Origin: Terriglobia bacterium
GTDB lineage: Bacteria > Acidobacteriota > Terriglobia > Acidiferrales > UBA7541
Length of the DNA: 64,000 nucleotides
Reading direction: 5' to 3'
Assembly: GCA_963695545.1 (NCBI GenBank)
Contig: OY968796.1
Coordinates: forward strand, 1,984,001-2,048,000
Position 1 is the first letter of the stretch, and each line of letters begins with the position of its first letter. A model generated the notes under the pieces. That model was not told where the DNA came from, did not search any database, and was given only the letters and a program-made list of their open reading frames with translations. Made by a program: the position numbers and the translations under genes. Of this stretch, positions 19,083-25,298 are shown piece by piece.

Positions 19083-19296
19083 TTGGCAGAATCCTCGATG
19101 CCGTGCAGATTTTTGCCCGATCCCAAAACCATGGGAACGGGAAGCGCCGAGCGGGCACGGTTTCTCCAAGCCGAATGGAGCGCCCGGCGGGAAACTATAG
19201 TTTGAAGGATTTGCGAGCTTCGCGCAACCCGCAAGATGGGGAATTATATACATGACTCCCGTAAGGAAACAAGGGACTTTAAGGGCGATTATGGAC

Positions 19297-19344
19297 TTGA
19301 CAAAGTAACGCGAATCTGGTAGCCTCTGTGTAGTGAGGCTGCCA
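19297..19344 (+). promoter_or_regulatory. Transposase promoter and RBS-sequestering hairpin
   Basis: TTGACA (19297-302)-17 bp-TAGCCT (19320-25). TGGTAGCCTC (19317-26) pairs with GAGGCTGCCA (19335-44), which covers the RBS and the A of ATG. Confidence 0.6.
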
Positions 19345-20327
19345 TGAACCTAATAGACGTTACACGAAAGTTCGCCAGCAAGGAATCCTGCTTAGAGTAT
19401 CTCGCCGCGATGCGCTGGCCGAATGGTATCACGTGCACACACTGTGGCGTTGTGGGCGACGATCAATTCCGCAAGTTCACGACACGCGAGACTGAGCGCA
19501 CTCGATTCAGCGCGAAGAAACAGAAGACGGTCACCGTCCGCGTGCCGTCGCGCAGCCTGTACGAGTGCAAGGGATGCGGCTATCAATTCAGCGCGACCAC
19601 GGGCACGGTGTTCCACGATTCACACTTGCCGCTCGAAAAGTGGTTTATGGCGATTGCCCTGATTCTTGAAGCGAAGAAAGGAATCAGCGCCCTACAGGTC
19701 TGCCGCAACCTCGGAATCCCTGAGAGTAGCTACCGGACGGTCTGGTATCTCTGCCATCGCATCCGTGAAGCCACACAAGAGACCGGCTTACTATCCGGCA
19801 TCGTTGAGACGGACGAGACCTATCTGACGCCTAAGAAGCCCCGCAAGGGCGCTCCCAAGGTCAAGAAAGACAAGCGAGACGTGGTGCTCGGAATGATCGA
19901 ACGCGGCGGTCGGCTGCGAATGGTTCCGATGCGAGACGCGAAGATGTCGATAATCGAGCCGATCATTGCGAAGCACATCGCTCCCGATGCCACGCTGCAA
20001 ACCGACGAACATCCCACATACGCGATAATCGGCAAGCGCCGCTTTCCCGGCAGGCACCGCGCGATCAATCACATGCGCAGTTACGCGGACGGCGACAATA
20101 CGACGAACTCAATTGAGAATGCGTTTTCGTTGCTCAAGCGCGGCGTGTACGGCACGTTCCACAAGGTTTCGATAAAGCATCTTGGCCGGTACTGCAACGA
20201 GTTTTCGTATCGGTTCAACCGACGCGGGAATCAGTCGGAGATGTTCGGCGAGACCGTGAAGGGATTGCTAAAGGGCCAGCCGTTGCCGCTCAAGAAGCTG
20301 ACTGCTTCCGAAACATCGGAGTCTTAG
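19344..20327 (+). CDS. IS1595-family DDE transposase
   Basis: RWPNG..CTHC...CKGC Zn ribbon, KKGISALQ HTH, VETDETY, LQTDE, TNSIENAFS and HL.RY..EF.YRFN motifs. Confidence 0.95.
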   Translation: MNLIDVTRKFASKESCLEYLAAMRWPNGITCTHCGVVGDDQFRKFTTRETERTRFSAKKQKTVTVRVPSRSLYECKGCGYQFSATTGTVFHDSHLPLEKWFMAIALILEAKKGISALQVCRNLGIPESSYRTVWYLCHRIREATQETGLLSGIVETDETYLTPKKPRKGAPKVKKDKRDVVLGMIERGGRLRMVPMRDAKMSIIEPIIAKHIAPDATLQTDEHPTYAIIGKRRFPGRHRAINHMRSYADGDNTTNSIENAFSLLKRGVYGTFHKVSIKHLGRYCNEFSYRFNRRGNQSEMFGETVKGLLKGQPLPLKKLTASETSES

Positions 20328-20445
20328 GGCCGCGCTTGCCGGAAGTTTTTATATCGCTTTGCGGCTTCGGCTTTGAGCCGAGCAGCGCCGCGAGCACCGC
20401 GTCAAACTTCTTCTTTTCGACCAGCACGCTTTTCTTTGTTTTCAT
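20290..20445 (-). CDS. Small basic protein (51 aa), convergent with and overlapping the transposase 3' end
   Basis: MKTKKSVLVEKKKFDAVLAALLGSKPKP...; amphipathic helix plus basic tail. Confidence 0.45.
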   Translation of the reverse strand: MKTKKSVLVEKKKFDAVLAALLGSKPKPQSDIKTSGKRGPKTPMFRKQSAS

Positions 20446-20503
20446 GAGTTTTCCACATCCTGAATGGATTTCCACAGCCATGTCGGAAAAATCCGGTAGT
20501 GAC

Positions 20504-20776
20504 TCATTTTGAATTGGGCCTTTGGGACAGGTGGCAGGGAGTCTTGTGGACGCCGGAGACCGGACGTGTGACATAAAACACGGGTTCGACGGCGGAAATC
20601 TGCTTAACCAAGAAGGGGGCCAACTGGAACTGCTTATAGCCCTCCTTCAGGGCATCGTCATACGAAGAAAAGAAGTCCACAATAGTTTCCCCGTGAATAA
20701 GCACGAACTTGCCCTCGTGCGCTTTCAGCTCGGGGAGGTTCTTCCGGTAGGTTTCCAGCTCTTTTTCTAAGGCCAT
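20504..20776 (-). CDS. Small passenger protein, DUF5678-like
   Basis: LEKELETY...HEGKFVLIHG..IVDFF.SY.DAL..GY..F...PFLVKQI pattern; the stop codon lies inside the TIR. Confidence 0.6.
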   Translation of the reverse strand: MALEKELETYRKNLPELKAHEGKFVLIHGETIVDFFSSYDDALKEGYKQFQLAPFLVKQISAVEPVFYVTRPVSGVHKTPCHLSQRPNSK

Positions 20777-20871
20777 CTTGGCACCAGTTGTTGTCACTTT
20801 TATACCTCAGATGCCAGAAGAGATGCGGGGATAGTACAAAACGGTTTCTCTGGGCGCAACACCAATTTGCC

Positions 20872-21720
20872 CTACGCGGCCTTCTCTTTCGACATCTCCA
20901 TTATACGCACCAGCTCCTCAATTGTCCAAACGTGGTCCGAGACTCCCGCTTCCATCGCAGGGGTTACACGTAGTGTTTGATGCACGCGGCAGAAGTTATA
21001 GTGCATAAAGTGGAGTGCCACGGCCCAACGGTGATTGTCTAGCTTCTTAGAGAACGCATTTGTGAGCCGGGTAAAACGGCGCATCTTCATCCGCATAGTT
21101 AGGTTCTGGCGTTCCACGAAGCTGGTAGAAATGTGCTTTGGATTCGGCTGACCTACAATTTTGGTTTGTCTGCACCCGATATAGTCTGCGGGACTATATC
21201 GGACTTCTCCTTGTGCCCGATCTGAGCCGTACATCTTGACGAGCATCGCGTAGTCAATCTCAGTACCGAATGCGAATTCAACCGCCTGCAAATAGGCTTT
21301 GTGACCATCGCTGGTCAACTGCACGCGATTGGCAAGGCGCGAAGCCAAGTCGTACATGAAATGCTGCGCGTGCCAAGCGTTGCGGTCACCGATTCGCCAG
21401 CAGGGAACCAACTTTGTATCCGCGCAAATAGAAACCCAGGTCCACACGTCGCCGAACCCATGCTTGCCGCGCAGATCGTTCGGCACGTTCTTTTCTTTGG
21501 CATAGCAGAAGGACCAGATTTCATCGCACTGGACGCGCTTGCAGGGAAGATTAACCAACACGCGGCGCTGGTATTCTTCGCAAGCTTGGCCAATCGCTGG
21601 CATGAGCTTTAGGACAGTATTAAAAGCCACATCGCACATACGGGCCGTGGCTCGTAGTGAGTTCCCTTCTACGAGTGCCGAGATGATCTGCGCTTGCTTC
21701 TCTTTGTTTAAGCGATTCAT
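20872..21720 (-). CDS. IS1-family DDE transposase (single ORF, HTH plus DDE)
   Basis: EGNSLRATAR HTH, QCDEIWSF, TSDG...Y, TSFVERQNLTMR..MRRFTRLT..FSKK and TPAM motifs. Confidence 0.92.
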   Translation of the reverse strand: MNRLNKEKQAQIISALVEGNSLRATARMCDVAFNTVLKLMPAIGQACEEYQRRVLVNLPCKRVQCDEIWSFCYAKEKNVPNDLRGKHGFGDVWTWVSICADTKLVPCWRIGDRNAWHAQHFMYDLASRLANRVQLTSDGHKAYLQAVEFAFGTEIDYAMLVKMYGSDRAQGEVRYSPADYIGCRQTKIVGQPNPKHISTSFVERQNLTMRMKMRRFTRLTNAFSKKLDNHRWAVALHFMHYNFCRVHQTLRVTPAMEAGVSDHVWTIEELVRIMEMSKEKAA

Positions 21721-21728
21721 AATGTCTG

Positions 21729-21758
21729 ATTATGCTTGAGCGGCTCAAGGTGTGTCAA
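21729..21758 (-). promoter_or_regulatory. IS1 transposase promoter with internal palindromic operator; leaderless ATG
   Basis: TTGACA (21753-58)-18 bp-CATAAT (21729-34). CTTGAG-CGG-CTCAAG lies in the spacer; the ATG is 8 nt downstream of the -10. Confidence 0.65.
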
Positions 21759-21924
21759 GAGAAAAACGCAGAATCTTACGAACACTTGGCGCTCACTAAG
21801 TGCTGTACTGTCAATACGATGTGGATACACCTGCGTAATATCCGCAGGGTGCTCTGCAAGTTCGGCGTGCTAGACTAAGTCTTCTCTGCTAGAATCGGCG
21901 TGTCTGATACGGACATGGAGGTTC

Positions 21925-22446
21925 ATGGTCATGGATGATAAACTAAGTGGCGCTGTCGAAGTGCTGGTCGCGCAATTGAACGATCAAATGAAACAAGTGG
22001 CTGACACAAAAAGCACGATCAACGCGCTATTACGAAGTATGGGGAAAGAGGCGATGTTTCAGGATGTAAACGTGGAACAAGCGTCCGCGATTCGTCCAGA
22101 CCAGTTCTACGGAAAGGGTCTCGCAACTGCTGTTCAGGACTATCTCAAACGGCGAAAGCAAGCGTGCGGAGCGGATGAAATTCTCCGGGGACTAGAACAA
22201 GGTGGTTTTGATTTCCGCTCAGTATCATGGAAGGAAGCTGATCGTCGTCGGAGTCTATCAATCTCATTGGCAAAGAACAGCGTCACATTTCATCGGCTTC
22301 CCAACGGGACATTCGGTCTGCTGAGTTGGTACCCTGAGAATATTGGGAAGCAAGAGCCGCCAGCAAACAAAAAGCGCGGGCGGAAAGCGAAGAAGGCCAA
22401 GCCATCGGCTGAGGACGCTACAAAGCCTGAACAGGGGAAACCATGA
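21925..22446 (+). CDS. Passenger protein: N-terminal coiled coil plus winged-helix (HARE-HTH-like) domain and basic tail
   Basis: GGAGG RBS; FHRLPNGTFGLLSWYP resembles the wing motif of HARE-HTH/RNAP delta N-terminal domains. Confidence 0.6.
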   Translation: MVMDDKLSGAVEVLVAQLNDQMKQVADTKSTINALLRSMGKEAMFQDVNVEQASAIRPDQFYGKGLATAVQDYLKRRKQACGADEILRGLEQGGFDFRSVSWKEADRRRSLSISLAKNSVTFHRLPNGTFGLLSWYPENIGKQEPPANKKRGRKAKKAKPSAEDATKPEQGKP

Positions 22447-22518
22447 CCAGAAGGGATATGTGCCTAGATTGCCGGACGCCGTGCCTACCGAGCAGCCTAG
22501 GCCAAATTAAAGACAAGA

Positions 22519-22557
22519 CCCGCTTCCAGTAACCTTTGCGGGGGAGCTGGAAGCGGG
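22519..22557. terminator. Hairpin between convergent passenger genes
   Basis: CCCGCTTCCAG (22519-29) pairs with CTGGAAGCGGG (22547-57). Confidence 0.4.
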
Positions 22558-22598
22558 CCGTGGTAGGACGCAAAGATCGCGGCCATGAACCGTCGCGA

Positions 22599-22835
22599 TT
22601 ATACCTTTTTTGTTGACCAACGTGCCTTAGCTGCTTTACGGGCGATGGCCTTTCGCTTACTGGCGGAGAGACGCGCCGCTCGCGCCTTTCCGCCTTTAAG
22701 ACCACCTTTGCGCCCGATCTGGGCGAGATACTCTTTGACGGATGCTGTCTGTCTTGGTTCTTCTGTGGATAGCCGTACGATCTCAGCGGCCAGTTGATTT
22801 GGGTCTTTCGGGAGCGGCTTGCTTGAGCGCCTCAT
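22599..22835 (-). CDS. Small highly basic protein of the type found beside IS1-like transposases
   Basis: PKDPNQLA..IV...T and GRKGGLKGGKARA..LS...R..IA.KAA.ARW motifs. Confidence 0.8.
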   Translation of the reverse strand: MRRSSKPLPKDPNQLAAEIVRLSTEEPRQTASVKEYLAQIGRKGGLKGGKARAARLSASKRKAIARKAAKARWSTKKV

Positions 22836-22967
22836 GCATCACATGATGCACAATTCTTCGGGGCGTTTCAAGCCCCCTAAAAGCTCAAAATGAGTCACTA
22901 CCAAAAATCCGCTTGCAATTTCATTCGTATTCTCTTCGCCTACCCCTGACTGAAACGCAAGCAAGGC

Positions 22968-22997
22968 TTGACAGATTTATCCCGAACAGCGTAGATT
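22968..22997 (+). promoter_or_regulatory. sigma70-type promoter of the RNA cluster
   Basis: TTGACA (22968-73)-18 bp-TAGATT (22992-97); no credible ORF follows for about 530 bp. Confidence 0.6.
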
Positions 22998-23003
22998 GCA
23001 CCC

Positions 23004-23105
23004 TAGTAACAGCGACGGCCCACCACCCCAAGGGGTAGTGAGCCGGTTGCTGCTGCCACGCTAGCACGTGGCGGAAGTTCTGGGCGCATGCTACCGAGAA
23101 TTCCG
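23004..23105 (+). ncRNA. Structured RNA, three consecutive hairpins, unknown class
   Basis: CAGCGAC-GGC-CAC-ACCCC/GGGGT-GTG-GCC-GTTGCTG; GCCACG/CGTGGC; GGAAgTTCT/AGAATTCC. Confidence 0.45.
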
Positions 23106-23147
23106 TTCCTCGTCAACGTGGTTTCCGAATTTATTTTTTGTCGCACG

Positions 23148-23214
23148 GGGGGCGCCAGGTAGGGGACGTCGGTTTCCCACCCATTTCCCCTGGGTTCAAA
23201 TCCCAGCGCCTCCA
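23148..23214 (+). ncRNA. D-armless tRNA-like RNA with alanine identity (resembles the tmRNA tRNA-like domain)
   Basis: Acceptor GGGGGCG/CGCCTCC with G3:U70 and A73. T-arm CTGGG-TTCAAAT-CCCAG. Only 35 nt between the acceptor 5' strand and the T-arm; no D-stem; no encoded CCA. Confidence 0.6.
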
Positions 23215-23231
23215 CCCATGCGACTTTCAAC

Positions 23232-23325
23232 GGCGGGATAGCTTTAACGGTAAAGCCCCGGATTTATAATCCGAGGGTCTCCATGCGTACACATGGAGAT
23301 GTCAGTTCGACCCTGACTCCCGCCG
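23232..23325 (+). tRNA. Irregular tRNA, anticodon UAU, long variable arm (Ser/Sec-like body)
   Basis: Acceptor GGCGGGA/TCCCGCC with G73. D-arm GCTTTA-ACGG-TAAAGC. Anticodon arm (C)CGGA-TT-TAT-AA-TCCG(A). V-arm GTCTCCATG-CGTACA-CATGGAGAT. T-arm GTCAG-TTCGACC-CTGAC. Confidence 0.88.
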
Positions 23326-23530
23326 TCAAACTTTTAAGGACACTAGGAGAACGCACCTGATTTCGGATTGGAAACAAAGGTCTGCATCGAGTCTCCCCAA
23401 CCCCGCGTCGCCGGGATTGCCTGACTTGGCTGGTACCAGCCGAGCACCCGGTACCGGCTCTGACTGTATATGGTATCACTATAATTTCGTCAAGGGAAAA
23501 CGATATGTCTCGTATCACACCGAGGTCAAC

Positions 23531-23867
23531 ATGATGAAACGCGTTTTTTTCTCGGCCTTAATCGCAGTTTGCATTGGTCAGGCTCCGCTTCTCGCGCAGG
23601 TGCGGCCTCCGGGTCGGCACCATCGAGACGACTTAGAACAGCGATACAACGATCTCAAATGTGCGCTCGTGATCGTTCAAAATGGGGGCGAATTCGGGAC
23701 AGGAGTTTTCATTGGCTCGGACGGAGATATTGCGACTGCCTCTCACGTCCTGGGCGACCGTACGTTCACATCTCAGGCCGACGGGACGATAACGACAAAC
23801 CTTGCGTTGCCCGCGTCACTCACCGTCATCGACAGCCAAGGAAAATCGACTACGGTGCCGGGAACAT
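23531..23867 (+). pseudogene. Secreted trypsin-like serine protease, 3'-truncated by IS3
   Basis: GAGG RBS, signal peptide MMKRVFFSALIAVC, GTGVFI...IATASHV (catalytic His motif); the Ser motif is absent. Confidence 0.75.
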
Positions 23868-23932
23868 TGACCTGACCGGGGTTTTTTGTACCAGCGGGAG
23901 TGAGAGAGAATTCACTCTGGAGGGAAGCTGGT

Positions 23933-24211
23933 ATGCCGATGAGGAGATACAAGCCGGAGCAGATCGTCACGCTGCTGCGGCAAGTTGAAGTTGAAATCGC
24001 CAACGGAAAGAGCACCCCACAAGCCTGCAAGGAAGCCGAGATCACCGCGCAGACCTACTACCGCTGGCGGAAGGAATACGGCGGCCTGAAGTTGGATCAA
24101 GCGAAACGCCTCAAAGAGTTGGAGCGGGAAAACGCCAAGCTGAAACGGTTGGTGGCGGAGCTTTCGTTGGAGAAGCAAATTCTGAAGGATGTGGCAGAGG
24201 GAAACTTCTAA
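23933..24211 (+). CDS. IS3 transposase OrfA
   Basis: HTH (TYYRWRKEYGG) and leucine zipper (LKELERENAKLKRLVAEL); ends in the slippery heptamer G GGA AAC (24199-205). Confidence 0.92.
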   Translation: MPMRRYKPEQIVTLLRQVEVEIANGKSTPQACKEAEITAQTYYRWRKEYGGLKLDQAKRLKELERENAKLKRLVAELSLEKQILKDVAEGNF

Positions 24212-25077
24212 GCCCTGAGCGGCGACGTAGCGCGGTGGAGCATGCACGCGAGAGCTACCAAGTATCAGAGCGGCATGCCTGCCGGTTGCTGGGGCAGTGG
24301 AGAGGGACACAACGCTACGAGGTGATCCACCGAACGGATGAAGACGCGCTGACGCGAGACATCGTGGCGCTGGCCAGCGAGTACGGGCGCTTCGGCTATC
24401 GGAGGATCACGGCGCTGTTGCAAGCACGGGGCTGGTATGTGGGCAAGGATCGGGTGCAGCGGATCTGGCGGCGCGAAGGGCTGAAAGTGCCGCAGGGACA
24501 AAGGCCGCGAGGAAGGCTGTGGTTGAACGACGGATCGTGTGTTCGTCTCCGGCCGGAACGAGCCAACCATGTGTGGAGCTACGATTTCGTGAGCGCGATG
24601 ACCCACGACGGCCGAACACTGCGAATGCTGACGCTGATCGACGAATACACGCGGGAGTGCCTGGCGATCCGCGTGGCGAGAAGGCTGGGGAGATACGAAG
24701 TGATCGAAGCGCTGGCGGACGTGATGCTTTACCGGGGAATTCCGGAACATATTCGCTCGGACAACGGCCCGGAGTTCGTGGCCAAGGAGCTGAGGAGTTG
24801 GCTGGCGAAGGTGGGAACGGGGACGCTGTACATCGAACCGGGAAGCCCTTGGGAGAATGGCTACTGCGAAAGCTTCAACGGGAAATTGCGCGATGAATGT
24901 TTGAACGGAGAGATTTTTTACTCGCTGAAGGAAGCGCAGATCGTGATCGAGAAATGGCGGATGGTGTACAACACGCTGCGTCCGCACTCAGCGCTGGGCT
25001 ACAGGCCACCGGCGCCGGTGGCCTGTAGCCCCTTGGTGCCGCCAATTCTCGGTTCGCCGTCGACGGCTGTGATGTAG
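24199..25077 (+). CDS. IS3 transposase OrfB, fused to OrfA by a -1 frameshift
   Basis: The -1 frame reads GKLLSPERRRSAVE... into the ORF at 24235; WSYDF, SDNGPEF, PWENGYCESFNG and RPHSALGY motifs. Confidence 0.92.
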   Translation, partial: GKLLSPERRRSAVEHARESYQVSERHACRLLGQWRGTQRYEVIHRTDEDALTRDIVALASEYGRFGYRRITALLQARGWYVGKDRVQRIWRREGLKVPQGQRPRGRLWLNDGSCVRLRPERANHVWSYDFVSAMTHDGRTLRMLTLIDEYTRECLAIRVARRLGRYEVIEALADVMLYRGIPEHIRSDNGPEFVAKELRSWLAKVGTGTLYIEPGSPWENGYCESFNGKLRDECLNGEIFYSLKEAQIVIEKWRMVYNTLRPHSALGYRPPAPVACSPLVPPILGSPSTAVM

Positions 25078-25298
25078 ACTCTCTCATTCACCGTGGTACA
25101 AAAACTCGGGCTGGTCATAAGGACAAGCCTAAATCAAGGGAGTCAACTATATAATTCCCGCAAGATGCGCGCGCGTGACGTGATTCAAAACCAATTTGGT
25201 CGCACGCTGGCGCGACGTGGCTGACGGTCGCCAACCGCGGGCGCGTCCGGTACAATAAATGGCGTGAACCCATCGATAGAAAACGCATAGGAGCTGCC

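Follow-up and report, generated by a model that had tools for sequence, protein, structure and literature searches.

Tandem arrays of irregular tRNAs, including allo-tRNAs, were described from acidobacterial mobile DNA by Mukai et al. 2017 (PMC5389517). These polycistrons combine an anticodon-independent identity with variable, non-cognate anticodons and a long-arm partner with UAU, UAA or UAG, and are represented in peat metatranscriptomes. Their RNAs possess an 8/4 or 9/3 acceptor branch, a long variable arm, joined in allo-tRNAs by a long D-stem, and an E-loop or G-1. Allo-tRNAs with G3:U70 insert Ala in E. coli, G-1 tRNAs of the first slot are charged but non-decoding, and suppression was seen with none of the six allo-tRNA(UAU) variants. 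Tag-less tmRNAs have also been published (PMC11915505), namely those of phage DS6A, of a Mallomonadaceae plastid (about 65 bp) and of mitochondria. In the mammalian mt-tRNA-Ser(UGA), an extra anticodon pair compensates for the shortened core (PMC10412605), and in Streptomyces tRNA-ProX the body of one amino acid's tRNA is combined with another's anticodon, with proven mistranslation (PMC10404621). For articles cited by PMC number, here and below, statements refer to the portions of text available.

The unit at 23148-23214 and the element carrying it

A tRNA-like unit was located on an IS1595-family element in the window, i.e. the whole 64,000-nt stretch of DNA analysed. The features of the element, with strand where assigned, are as follows.

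19239..25159: IS1595-family element carrying tRNAs, 5.9 kb, 22-nt terminal inverted repeats at 19239-19260 and 25138-25159
19344..20327, +: IS1595 (ISXO2-like) transposase (PF12762, E 2.3e-32; PF12760)
20495..22902: IS1-like element nested in the IS1595 element, with perfect inverted repeats of 18 bp and a target duplication of 8 bp
20872..21720, -: transposase of the nested IS1-like element
22968..22997, +: promoter-like site of sigma-70 type preceding the two tRNA genes, identified solely by its consensus, with which it agrees at 10 of 12 positions
23010..23052, +: strong leader hairpin after the promoter-like site (z -3.1)
23140..23145, +: 5' arm of precursor flank stem, complement of 23219-23224
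23148..23214, +: compact tRNA-like gene (the unit), 67 nt up to the discriminator, CCA not encoded
23148-23154/23207-23213, +: acceptor stem of the unit, 7 bp, with G3 (23150):U70 (23211) and A73 (23214)
23155-23163, +: micro D-stem of the unit, 2 bp, 23155-23156 with 23162-23163
23164-23189, +: extended anticodon arm of the unit
23173..23179, +: anticodon loop, with U33 at 23174, UCC (reads Gly GGA) at 23175-23177, C37 and A38
23190-23206, +: T-arm of the unit, 5-bp T-stem and canonical 7-nt loop
23219..23224, +: 3' arm of precursor flank stem, complement of 23140-23145
23232..23325, +: second cargo tRNA, anticodon UAU, 7/5 fold, long variable arm, G73 (tRNA model 50.2 bits, z -5.5)
23533..23875, +: trypsin-like ORF, weak PF13365 match (E 0.006 on the longer start at 23417), truncated by the IS3 insertion
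23883..25104: IS3-family element nested in the IS1595 element, with 8 more identical copies elsewhere in the genome

The IS1595 element was flanked by an 8-bp target duplication, and the empty site was found in a congener (G007). Without the nested insertion sequences, its cargo consisted of a small ORF, the promoter-like site, two tRNA genes and the cut trypsin-like ORF, the unit lying 2-4 kb from the ends of the element. The arrangement typical of the polycistrons, in which irregular tRNAs stand in tandem and a partner has a long arm, was thus present on this acidobacterial mobile DNA; the original prediction, which dealt with the 67-nt unit and its flanks, had mentioned neither the downstream tRNA(UAU) nor the promoter-like site nor the transposon. 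The tRNA(UAU) lies directly downstream of the unit and appears to be like allo-tRNA(UAU). When 200 family genomes were searched at the DNA level, one copy of it was returned, 86% identical (G066; L010:1506-1692), in which the flank stem was the same and the first slot was occupied by a different irregular tRNA with a CGU-type loop; therefore, the slot is exchangeable. A sister IS1595 element in the same genome (G000:C1:343572-346850), with a transposase 92.7% identical, lacked the unit, its long-arm tRNA(UAU) being a different one enclosed by a perfect flank stem; in both transposases, AUA is kept in the same four columns of Ile. The three small ORFs of the nested IS1-like element gave no Pfam match. 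ORFs at 21925-22446 (+) and 22599-22835 (-), likewise without Pfam match, had look-alikes, judged by eye, adjoining such transposases in L015, L017, L026, L137 and L119, and inspection by eye showed hairpins resembling the leader hairpin in the upstream regions of L011, L020, L023 and L028.

The host encodes SmpB, AlaRS and two CCA-family genes, and possesses a complete ssrA (174.8 bits) 2 Mb from the unit. Two genes of the PolyA_pol family were located (G000:C1 1908847-1909212 and 3330272-3330655), perhaps a split pair of enzymes, one adding CC and the other A; the host also has additional or odd tRNA genes at G000:C1 2260191-2260283, 1625451-1625526, c366041-366115 and c3387331-3387405. Part of the stretch was contained in six RNA runs, four of which (X1, X2, X3 and X5) were compared in detail. 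X1 had a 208-nt contig identical to 23091-23298, covering the tRNA pair partly into tRNA(UAU); X2 and X3 had a relative matching from 23148 onward, with triplet UCG and G37; X5 had partial relatives. All of these are at the level of contigs and may be DNA, and the metatranscriptome contigs give a weak indication that the unit and tRNA(UAU) are transcribed.

As predicted originally, the unit has an acceptor stem with G3:U70 and A73, a T-arm with a 5-bp stem and canonical 7-nt loop, and flanks that are complementary. CCC, not CCA, comes after the discriminator. ARAGORN labelled the unit tRNA-Gly(tcc), and of the traits of a canonical tRNA, the four-pair D-stem, spacer bases 8-9, 5-bp anticodon stem and 4-5-nt variable loop were all absent. 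In the model comparison suggested with the original prediction, the best Rfam match was to the tmRNA ends (RF00023; E 1.8e-12), not to the tRNA model (RF00005), but the 37.6 bits were below the gathering score of 47, and in the alignment the consensus UCGAC and GAC were both gaps. Other Rfam families, Y-RNA/YrlA included, gave no match at E up to 10, and no TROVE neighbour was seen among the ORFs scanned, so that a Y-RNA/YrlA assignment was rejected. The folding z of the unit was -2.3 to -2.6, and its score on model R1 (built with the unit included; see below) was 78.4 bits. The unit is not a chance sequence because of its Rfam tmRNA score, its folding z and its homologues.

A family of compact tRNAs

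Twenty-seven distinct relatives with a unit length of 66-70 nt were gathered from Acidobacteriota, metagenomes and phage contigs. The alignment, A3, has 27 sequences, 22 of which were not hand-picked; five (L132, L137, L141, L155 and L049), from a looser scan of viral contigs, were chosen by eye. The DNA search of the 200 family genomes yielded two copies of the unit (L011 and L012), and a strict pattern yielded four loci in genome contigs with Acidobacteriota titles, ten in metagenomes and none in viral contigs. Model R1, built from 13 sequences, added L030, with two of 150 family genomes matched, and, with 32 candidates scored in each genome, matched 0 of 150 in a sample of the phylum apart from the own genome. 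Looser patterns added L040, then L162 and L167 (five of 400 class genomes matched besides the own one), and L169, L171 and L172; in the looser viral-contig scan, with at least 120 loci, L078 and L075 had the top R1 scores among the matches listed and were added too. The plasmid collection gave no match to the family, the annotated phage collection gave T-arm fragments only, and the unit was present in none of five congeners. This class of compact tRNAs is rare and patchy. The 15 core members scored 64-96 bits on R1 and ordinary tRNAs at most 36, 13 of the 15 being the training set.

Duplicates were merged (L016 with L012, L018 with L011, L024 and L027 with L023, L168 with L078, and L170 with L040). 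G354 and G358, ordinary tRNAs by sequence, L033 and L036, chance matches in coding sequence, and L039 (tRNA-Lys) and L041 were dropped, and L119, which has a family-type anticodon loop but a 4-nt variable loop, was kept out of A3. A parse of 111 units missed the members L023, L075, L078, L132, L137, L155, L167 and L172, for which other folds were chosen. Annotation tools name the family RNAs by their anticodons as Gly, Asp, Glu, Leu or Trp, which is mislabelling. A partner tRNA was found at most 20 nt downstream in 7 of the 15 core members (UAU in four, UAA in two and UAG in one), and an IS1595 or IS1-type transposase was found within the fetched flank at 7 of the 15 core loci (based on a scan of 72 of 114 ORFs, several of the contigs being short).

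The family fold is predicted to be a compact four-way junction made up of a 7-bp acceptor stem, a 2-3-bp micro D-stem, an anticodon arm of 9-10 layers, a variable loop of 0-1 nt and the T-arm. Of 16 counted pairs in A3, nine changed on both sides, a number reached in 0 of 500 shuffles (kinship inflates this figure). Unguided RNAalifold recovered the acceptor, the T-stem and two D pairs from position 8, the latter with compensatory changes in 7 and 4 of the 27 sequences, and omitted the anticodon arm, the columns of which are offset by bulges. In single-sequence parses, a 2-3-bp stem at position 8 followed by an arm ending 0-1 nt before the T-stem was obtained for all 27; this junction rule held for 22 of the 22 members not hand-picked and for 10.6% of shuffles, and a looser form of it for 2 of 19 TLD-only units (see below) and 6 of 65 other units. 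The term D-armless used originally therefore gives way to a 2-bp micro D-stem. The central hairpin proposed at first is in a register that, by inspection, pairs the triplet varying in homologues, the shared fold being the 9-10-layer arm with the 7-nt loop 23173-23179; U33, which had been reported as lacking, lies at 23174 and is kept in 26 of the 27 relatives. On the unit sequence alone, the family fold had an energy of -24.1/-26.0, the hairpin proposed at first -27.7 and the minimum -32.1 kcal/mol, i.e. for this single sequence the family fold sits 6-8 kcal/mol above the minimum, and the former hairpin is energetically competitive on it.

In canonical tRNA the anticodon branch has about 12 layers (Steinberg's rule). 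The anticodon arm of the family had 9-10 layers in 26 of 27 members, and D-stem plus arm had 11-13 in 26 and 12 in 17, the unit with 11 being at the short end. The loop had U33 and A38 in 26 members each, and the triplet took 16 values among the 27, Ala once. While a purine at position 37 is the rule in decoding tRNAs, this position was C in 12, A in 9, G in 4 and U in 2 (pyrimidine in 14 of 27), and most core members had a pyrimidine mismatch two pairs below the loop. The alanine identity set (G1:C72, G2:C71, G3:U70 and A73) was conserved in the relatives as the original prediction would have it. G3:U70 and A73 occurred in 27 of 27, though most search patterns fixed both and the constancy of acceptor and T-loop is partly a product of the patterns; both were retained in all four relatives found without a fixed acceptor (L011, L012, L030 and L040). 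A flank helix of at least six pairs was present in 9 of the 27 versus 3.5 expected, and the flank stem is thus only modestly general. The tRNA cut-off (RF00005) was reached by one of nine relatives tested (L049).

Compact phage tRNA-Ala(UGC) with a 3-4-bp D-stem, missing spacer bases and a 7-9-bp anticodon stem occurred in viral contigs (L053, L063, L068, L090, L143, L145 and L150), and in L053, L063, L068, L090, L143 and L150 (6 of 29 rows) a D-stem of 4 bp and the anticodon stem summed to 12; these tRNAs may be intermediates. L099 and L070 had G3:U70, non-Ala triplets and a longer D-stem. L030:1400-1690 (G029) is a three-gene cassette of long-arm tRNA(GUU), a compact unit (ACG) and a degenerate tRNA(UAU). 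L169 (2500-2568) and L171 (2500-2567) repeat their anticodon stem-loop, with 12 of 13 positions matching, some 130 nt upstream, next to a hairpin resembling a terminator and ahead of the promoter (0 of 100 shuffles), and a similar copy was seen by eye at L070:1501-1569; such a copy could be an antisense guard RNA. The ORF start after the copy in L169 and L070 we take to be RadC-like. At the unit's own locus a copy of this kind was not significant (36 of 100 shuffles), and among 21 loci only L169 and L171 were significant, L040 being borderline.

Relation to tmRNA and possible roles

The original prediction likened the unit to a free-standing tRNA-like domain (TLD) of tmRNA that could bind SmpB; in such a role it would damp trans-translation like the DS6A phage RNA. 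In favour of this reading are the best Rfam match, the host-encoded SmpB, a phage TLD-only RNA (L083) having its first 12 nt in common with several family members, and the acceptor, which is identical to that of the host ssrA. However, SmpB contacts A15, U17, C18, G19 and A334 of E. coli tmRNA (PMC8363625), residues that would map onto the Rfam UCGAC and GAC motifs, and both regions are deleted in the unit. A stemless D-loop ending in UCGAC was found in none of the 27 relatives, which have a 2-3-bp D-stem instead, nor was the 3-nt GAC-type connector before the T-stem, in place of which there is a variable loop of 0-1 nt; the anticodon-type loop is conserved, whereas in tmRNA SmpB takes the place of this loop. 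The nine relatives tested, like the unit, all fell below the tmRNA gathering score, which was passed by two of three TLD-only RNAs (L083 and L128, not L067). A role as free TLD is quite improbable, although the 12 nt in common with L083 would allow a tmRNA origin of the family, which may alternatively stem from tRNA-Ala. A permuted two-piece tmRNA was rejected, as the acceptor halves are in standard order and the host ssrA is complete elsewhere.

Defined by a YCGAY D-loop and an xAY connector, TLD-only units numbered 19 among the 111 parsed from the loose scan, mostly with encoded CCA. There are at least 19 distinct mini-tmRNAs of this kind, 64-70 nt long with SmpB motifs intact, in viral contigs (L046, L064, L067, L073, L076, L083, L085, L087, L093, L098, L107, L108, L114, L115, L128, L129, L130, L159 and L052), and variants with GGAAG/AAC motifs were found in L045, L111, L133 and L161. 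The DS6A type of tag-less tmRNA looks widespread in phages.

We favour the interpretation that the unit is a compact Ala-accepting tRNA with a non-Ala anticodon, carried as IS1595 cargo and decoding as a low-level missense adaptor; the probability of this whole chain is put at about 0.45. Its first four steps, i.e. transcription, processing, folding and charging with Ala, are quite probable as a description. Transcription would start at the element's own promoter, with tRNA(UAU) behind the unit, in line with the consensus match and the contig-level RNA hint, and host enzymes would excise the unit and add CCA, the flank stem possibly slowing this step. In the spacer-free four-way junction, whose secondary structure is borne out by covariation, the 2-bp D-stem would stack on the 9-10-layer anticodon arm, and the anticodon branch would thus come to about 12 layers and be tRNA-sized in the presumed three-dimensional shape. 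Host AlaRS would charge the RNA via G3:U70 and A73 with no need of the anticodon, as expected from known identity rules: Ala identity sits in the acceptor stem and A73 (PMC9976931), and therefore the anticodon is free to vary. EF-Tu would deliver the charged RNA, and GGA would be read at low efficiency, placing Ala at Gly codons; alternatively, the unit may fill in where the cognate tRNA is missing. Both the charging by AlaRS and the binding to EF-Tu are plausible. The gain for the element may lie in toxin-like or stress- or phage-related mistranslation, as proposed for allo-tRNAs.

Non-Ala triplets were borne on the Ala acceptor by 26 of the 27, and what faces EF-Tu and the ribosome was kept, namely the T-stem (G51:C63 in 25 of 27), the T-loop, the branch length and the U-turn loop. 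We interpret the persistence of these features, while the triplet wanders, as selection in favour of a charged molecule that has the shape of a tRNA and carries a foreign anticodon, be it an adaptor or a decoy. C37 of the unit is evidence against efficient decoding. The GGA codons of the element's own transposase occupy positions that are invariably Gly (in 119 and 120 of 120 homologues), and efficient decoding would therefore harm the element. C37 and the invariant GGA glycines argue that any decoding by the unit would be weak or conditional. For targeting of rare codons the picture was mixed: GGA makes up 19% of host Gly codons, and the target codons of some relatives, GAU, GAA and GAC, are common in the host at 26-31 per 1000. 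More generally, and tentatively, minimal four-way-junction tRNAs may be widespread on transposons and phages, an anticodon-blind Ala chassis whose anticodon changes freely serving as mobile missense or stall-bypass adaptors that would decode with essentially no tertiary core.

A somewhat unlikely alternative is that the RNA is charged but non-decoding, a decoy or ligand that distracts tRNA-targeting toxins or defence nucleases, the triplet matching nuclease specificities, or titrates EF-Tu or AlaRS; the modulator or decoy role foreseen originally survives in this form, as a tRNA decoy, and not as an SmpB decoy. The pyrimidine at position 37 together with the stem mismatch, the 16 triplets with no single codon kept, members in viral contigs, antitoxin or defence neighbours at some loci (HicB at L018, Panacea at L162 and AbiJ at L022), and the charged but non-decoding G-1 tRNA1 (PMC5389517) would all suit a decoy. 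However, no toxin or nuclease gene was common to the loci (72 of 114 neighbouring ORFs scanned), and the 12-layer length and strong T-stem would exceed the needs of a one-loop decoy. Decay of a tRNA or tmRNA, also considered originally, or an attachment-site remnant of an integrating element would accord with the patchy occurrence, the CCA not encoded and the likeness of the 3' part of the unit to the 3' end of host ssrA, which in the comparison proposed at the outset reached 82% over 34 nt (E 0.48), but is quite improbable in view of the compensatory changes in the acceptor, D, anticodon and T stems, the host ssrA intact 2 Mb away, and the position of the unit inside an element whose ends, 2-4 kb off, bear their own repeats and target duplication.

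Non-ribosomal donation of Ala to a Fem/MprF-type transferase, a known role of odd tRNAs (PMC7826273), is very improbable, since no transferase was seen among the neighbours scanned and the strong G51:C63, canonical T-loop and anticodon loop are all kept; a weak A51:U63 is found in the non-proteogenic tRNA-Gly of the same article, versus G51:C63 in the family. Scarcely credible is a private code in which the transposase would write Ala as GGA (and Ser as AUA) and need the cargo tRNAs for its reading. The tRNAs do travel with the transposase, in which AUA makes up 4 of 19 Ile codons versus a 6% share in the host, but in the column test on 120 transposase homologues, which led to rejection, none of five GGA codons stood in Ala-majority columns and four of four AUA codons stood in Ile-majority columns; among the matching codons of seven other transposases, Ala was the commonest residue (39 of 120) at the column of a single one (AUA, L025).

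Comparison with described systems

The tag-less tmRNAs of PMC11915505 have about the same size and share the acceptor and T-arm with the family and, likewise, no tag frame, but the family is without UCGAC and GAC, has a micro D-stem and a U33 loop, and lies below the Rfam tmRNA cut-off. Streptomyces tRNA-ProX, in which the mismatch of body and anticodon is like that of the unit, has Pro identity, an apparently ordinary cloverleaf and a synthetase next door, according to the portion of PMC10404621 available; no synthetase was seen beside the unit. In mammalian mt-tRNA-Ser(UGA) and mt-tRNA-Ser(GCU) and in tRNA-Pyl (PMC10412605), a shortened core is balanced by a longer anticodon stem, as in the family, which differs in being bacterial and mobile and in having an Ala acceptor, no spacer bases, a 2-bp D-stem, a 10-layer arm and a canonical T-arm.

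The systems of PMC5389517 share with the unit the acidobacterial mobile DNA, the tandem odd tRNAs and the other properties given at the outset. In contrast to their acceptor branches and long variable arms, the family is 7/5 (covarying) and 66-70 nt long, with a D-stem of just 2-3 bp, a 9-10-layer arm and a variable loop of 0-1 nt, and compared with the tRNA1 type (E-loop 8/4 or G-1 His) the unit has A73, 7/5 and no E-loop. Signature strings of the unit were not found in the available text of the PMC5389517 supplement, figures aside, nor was the family fold found in Rfam 15, that supplement text, the available text of the review PMC7609411 or the open-licence literature (figures and bioRxiv supplements being outside this scope).

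A bacterial tRNA of 66-70 nt whose D-stem has 2 bp and which lacks a variable loop probes the minimal core for EF-Tu and the bacterial ribosome, a question until now mostly tied to mitochondrial tRNAs. If decoding is true, the family would represent natural compact missense suppressors; the sequences suggest that mobile DNA spreads small RNAs that may misinsert amino acids deliberately or act as decoys. Irregular tRNA cargo on acidobacterial mobile DNA is a known setting, the compact fold appears to be new in the sources searched, and an Ala chassis joins the Ser-, Leu- and His-type cargo tRNAs of acidobacterial mobile elements.
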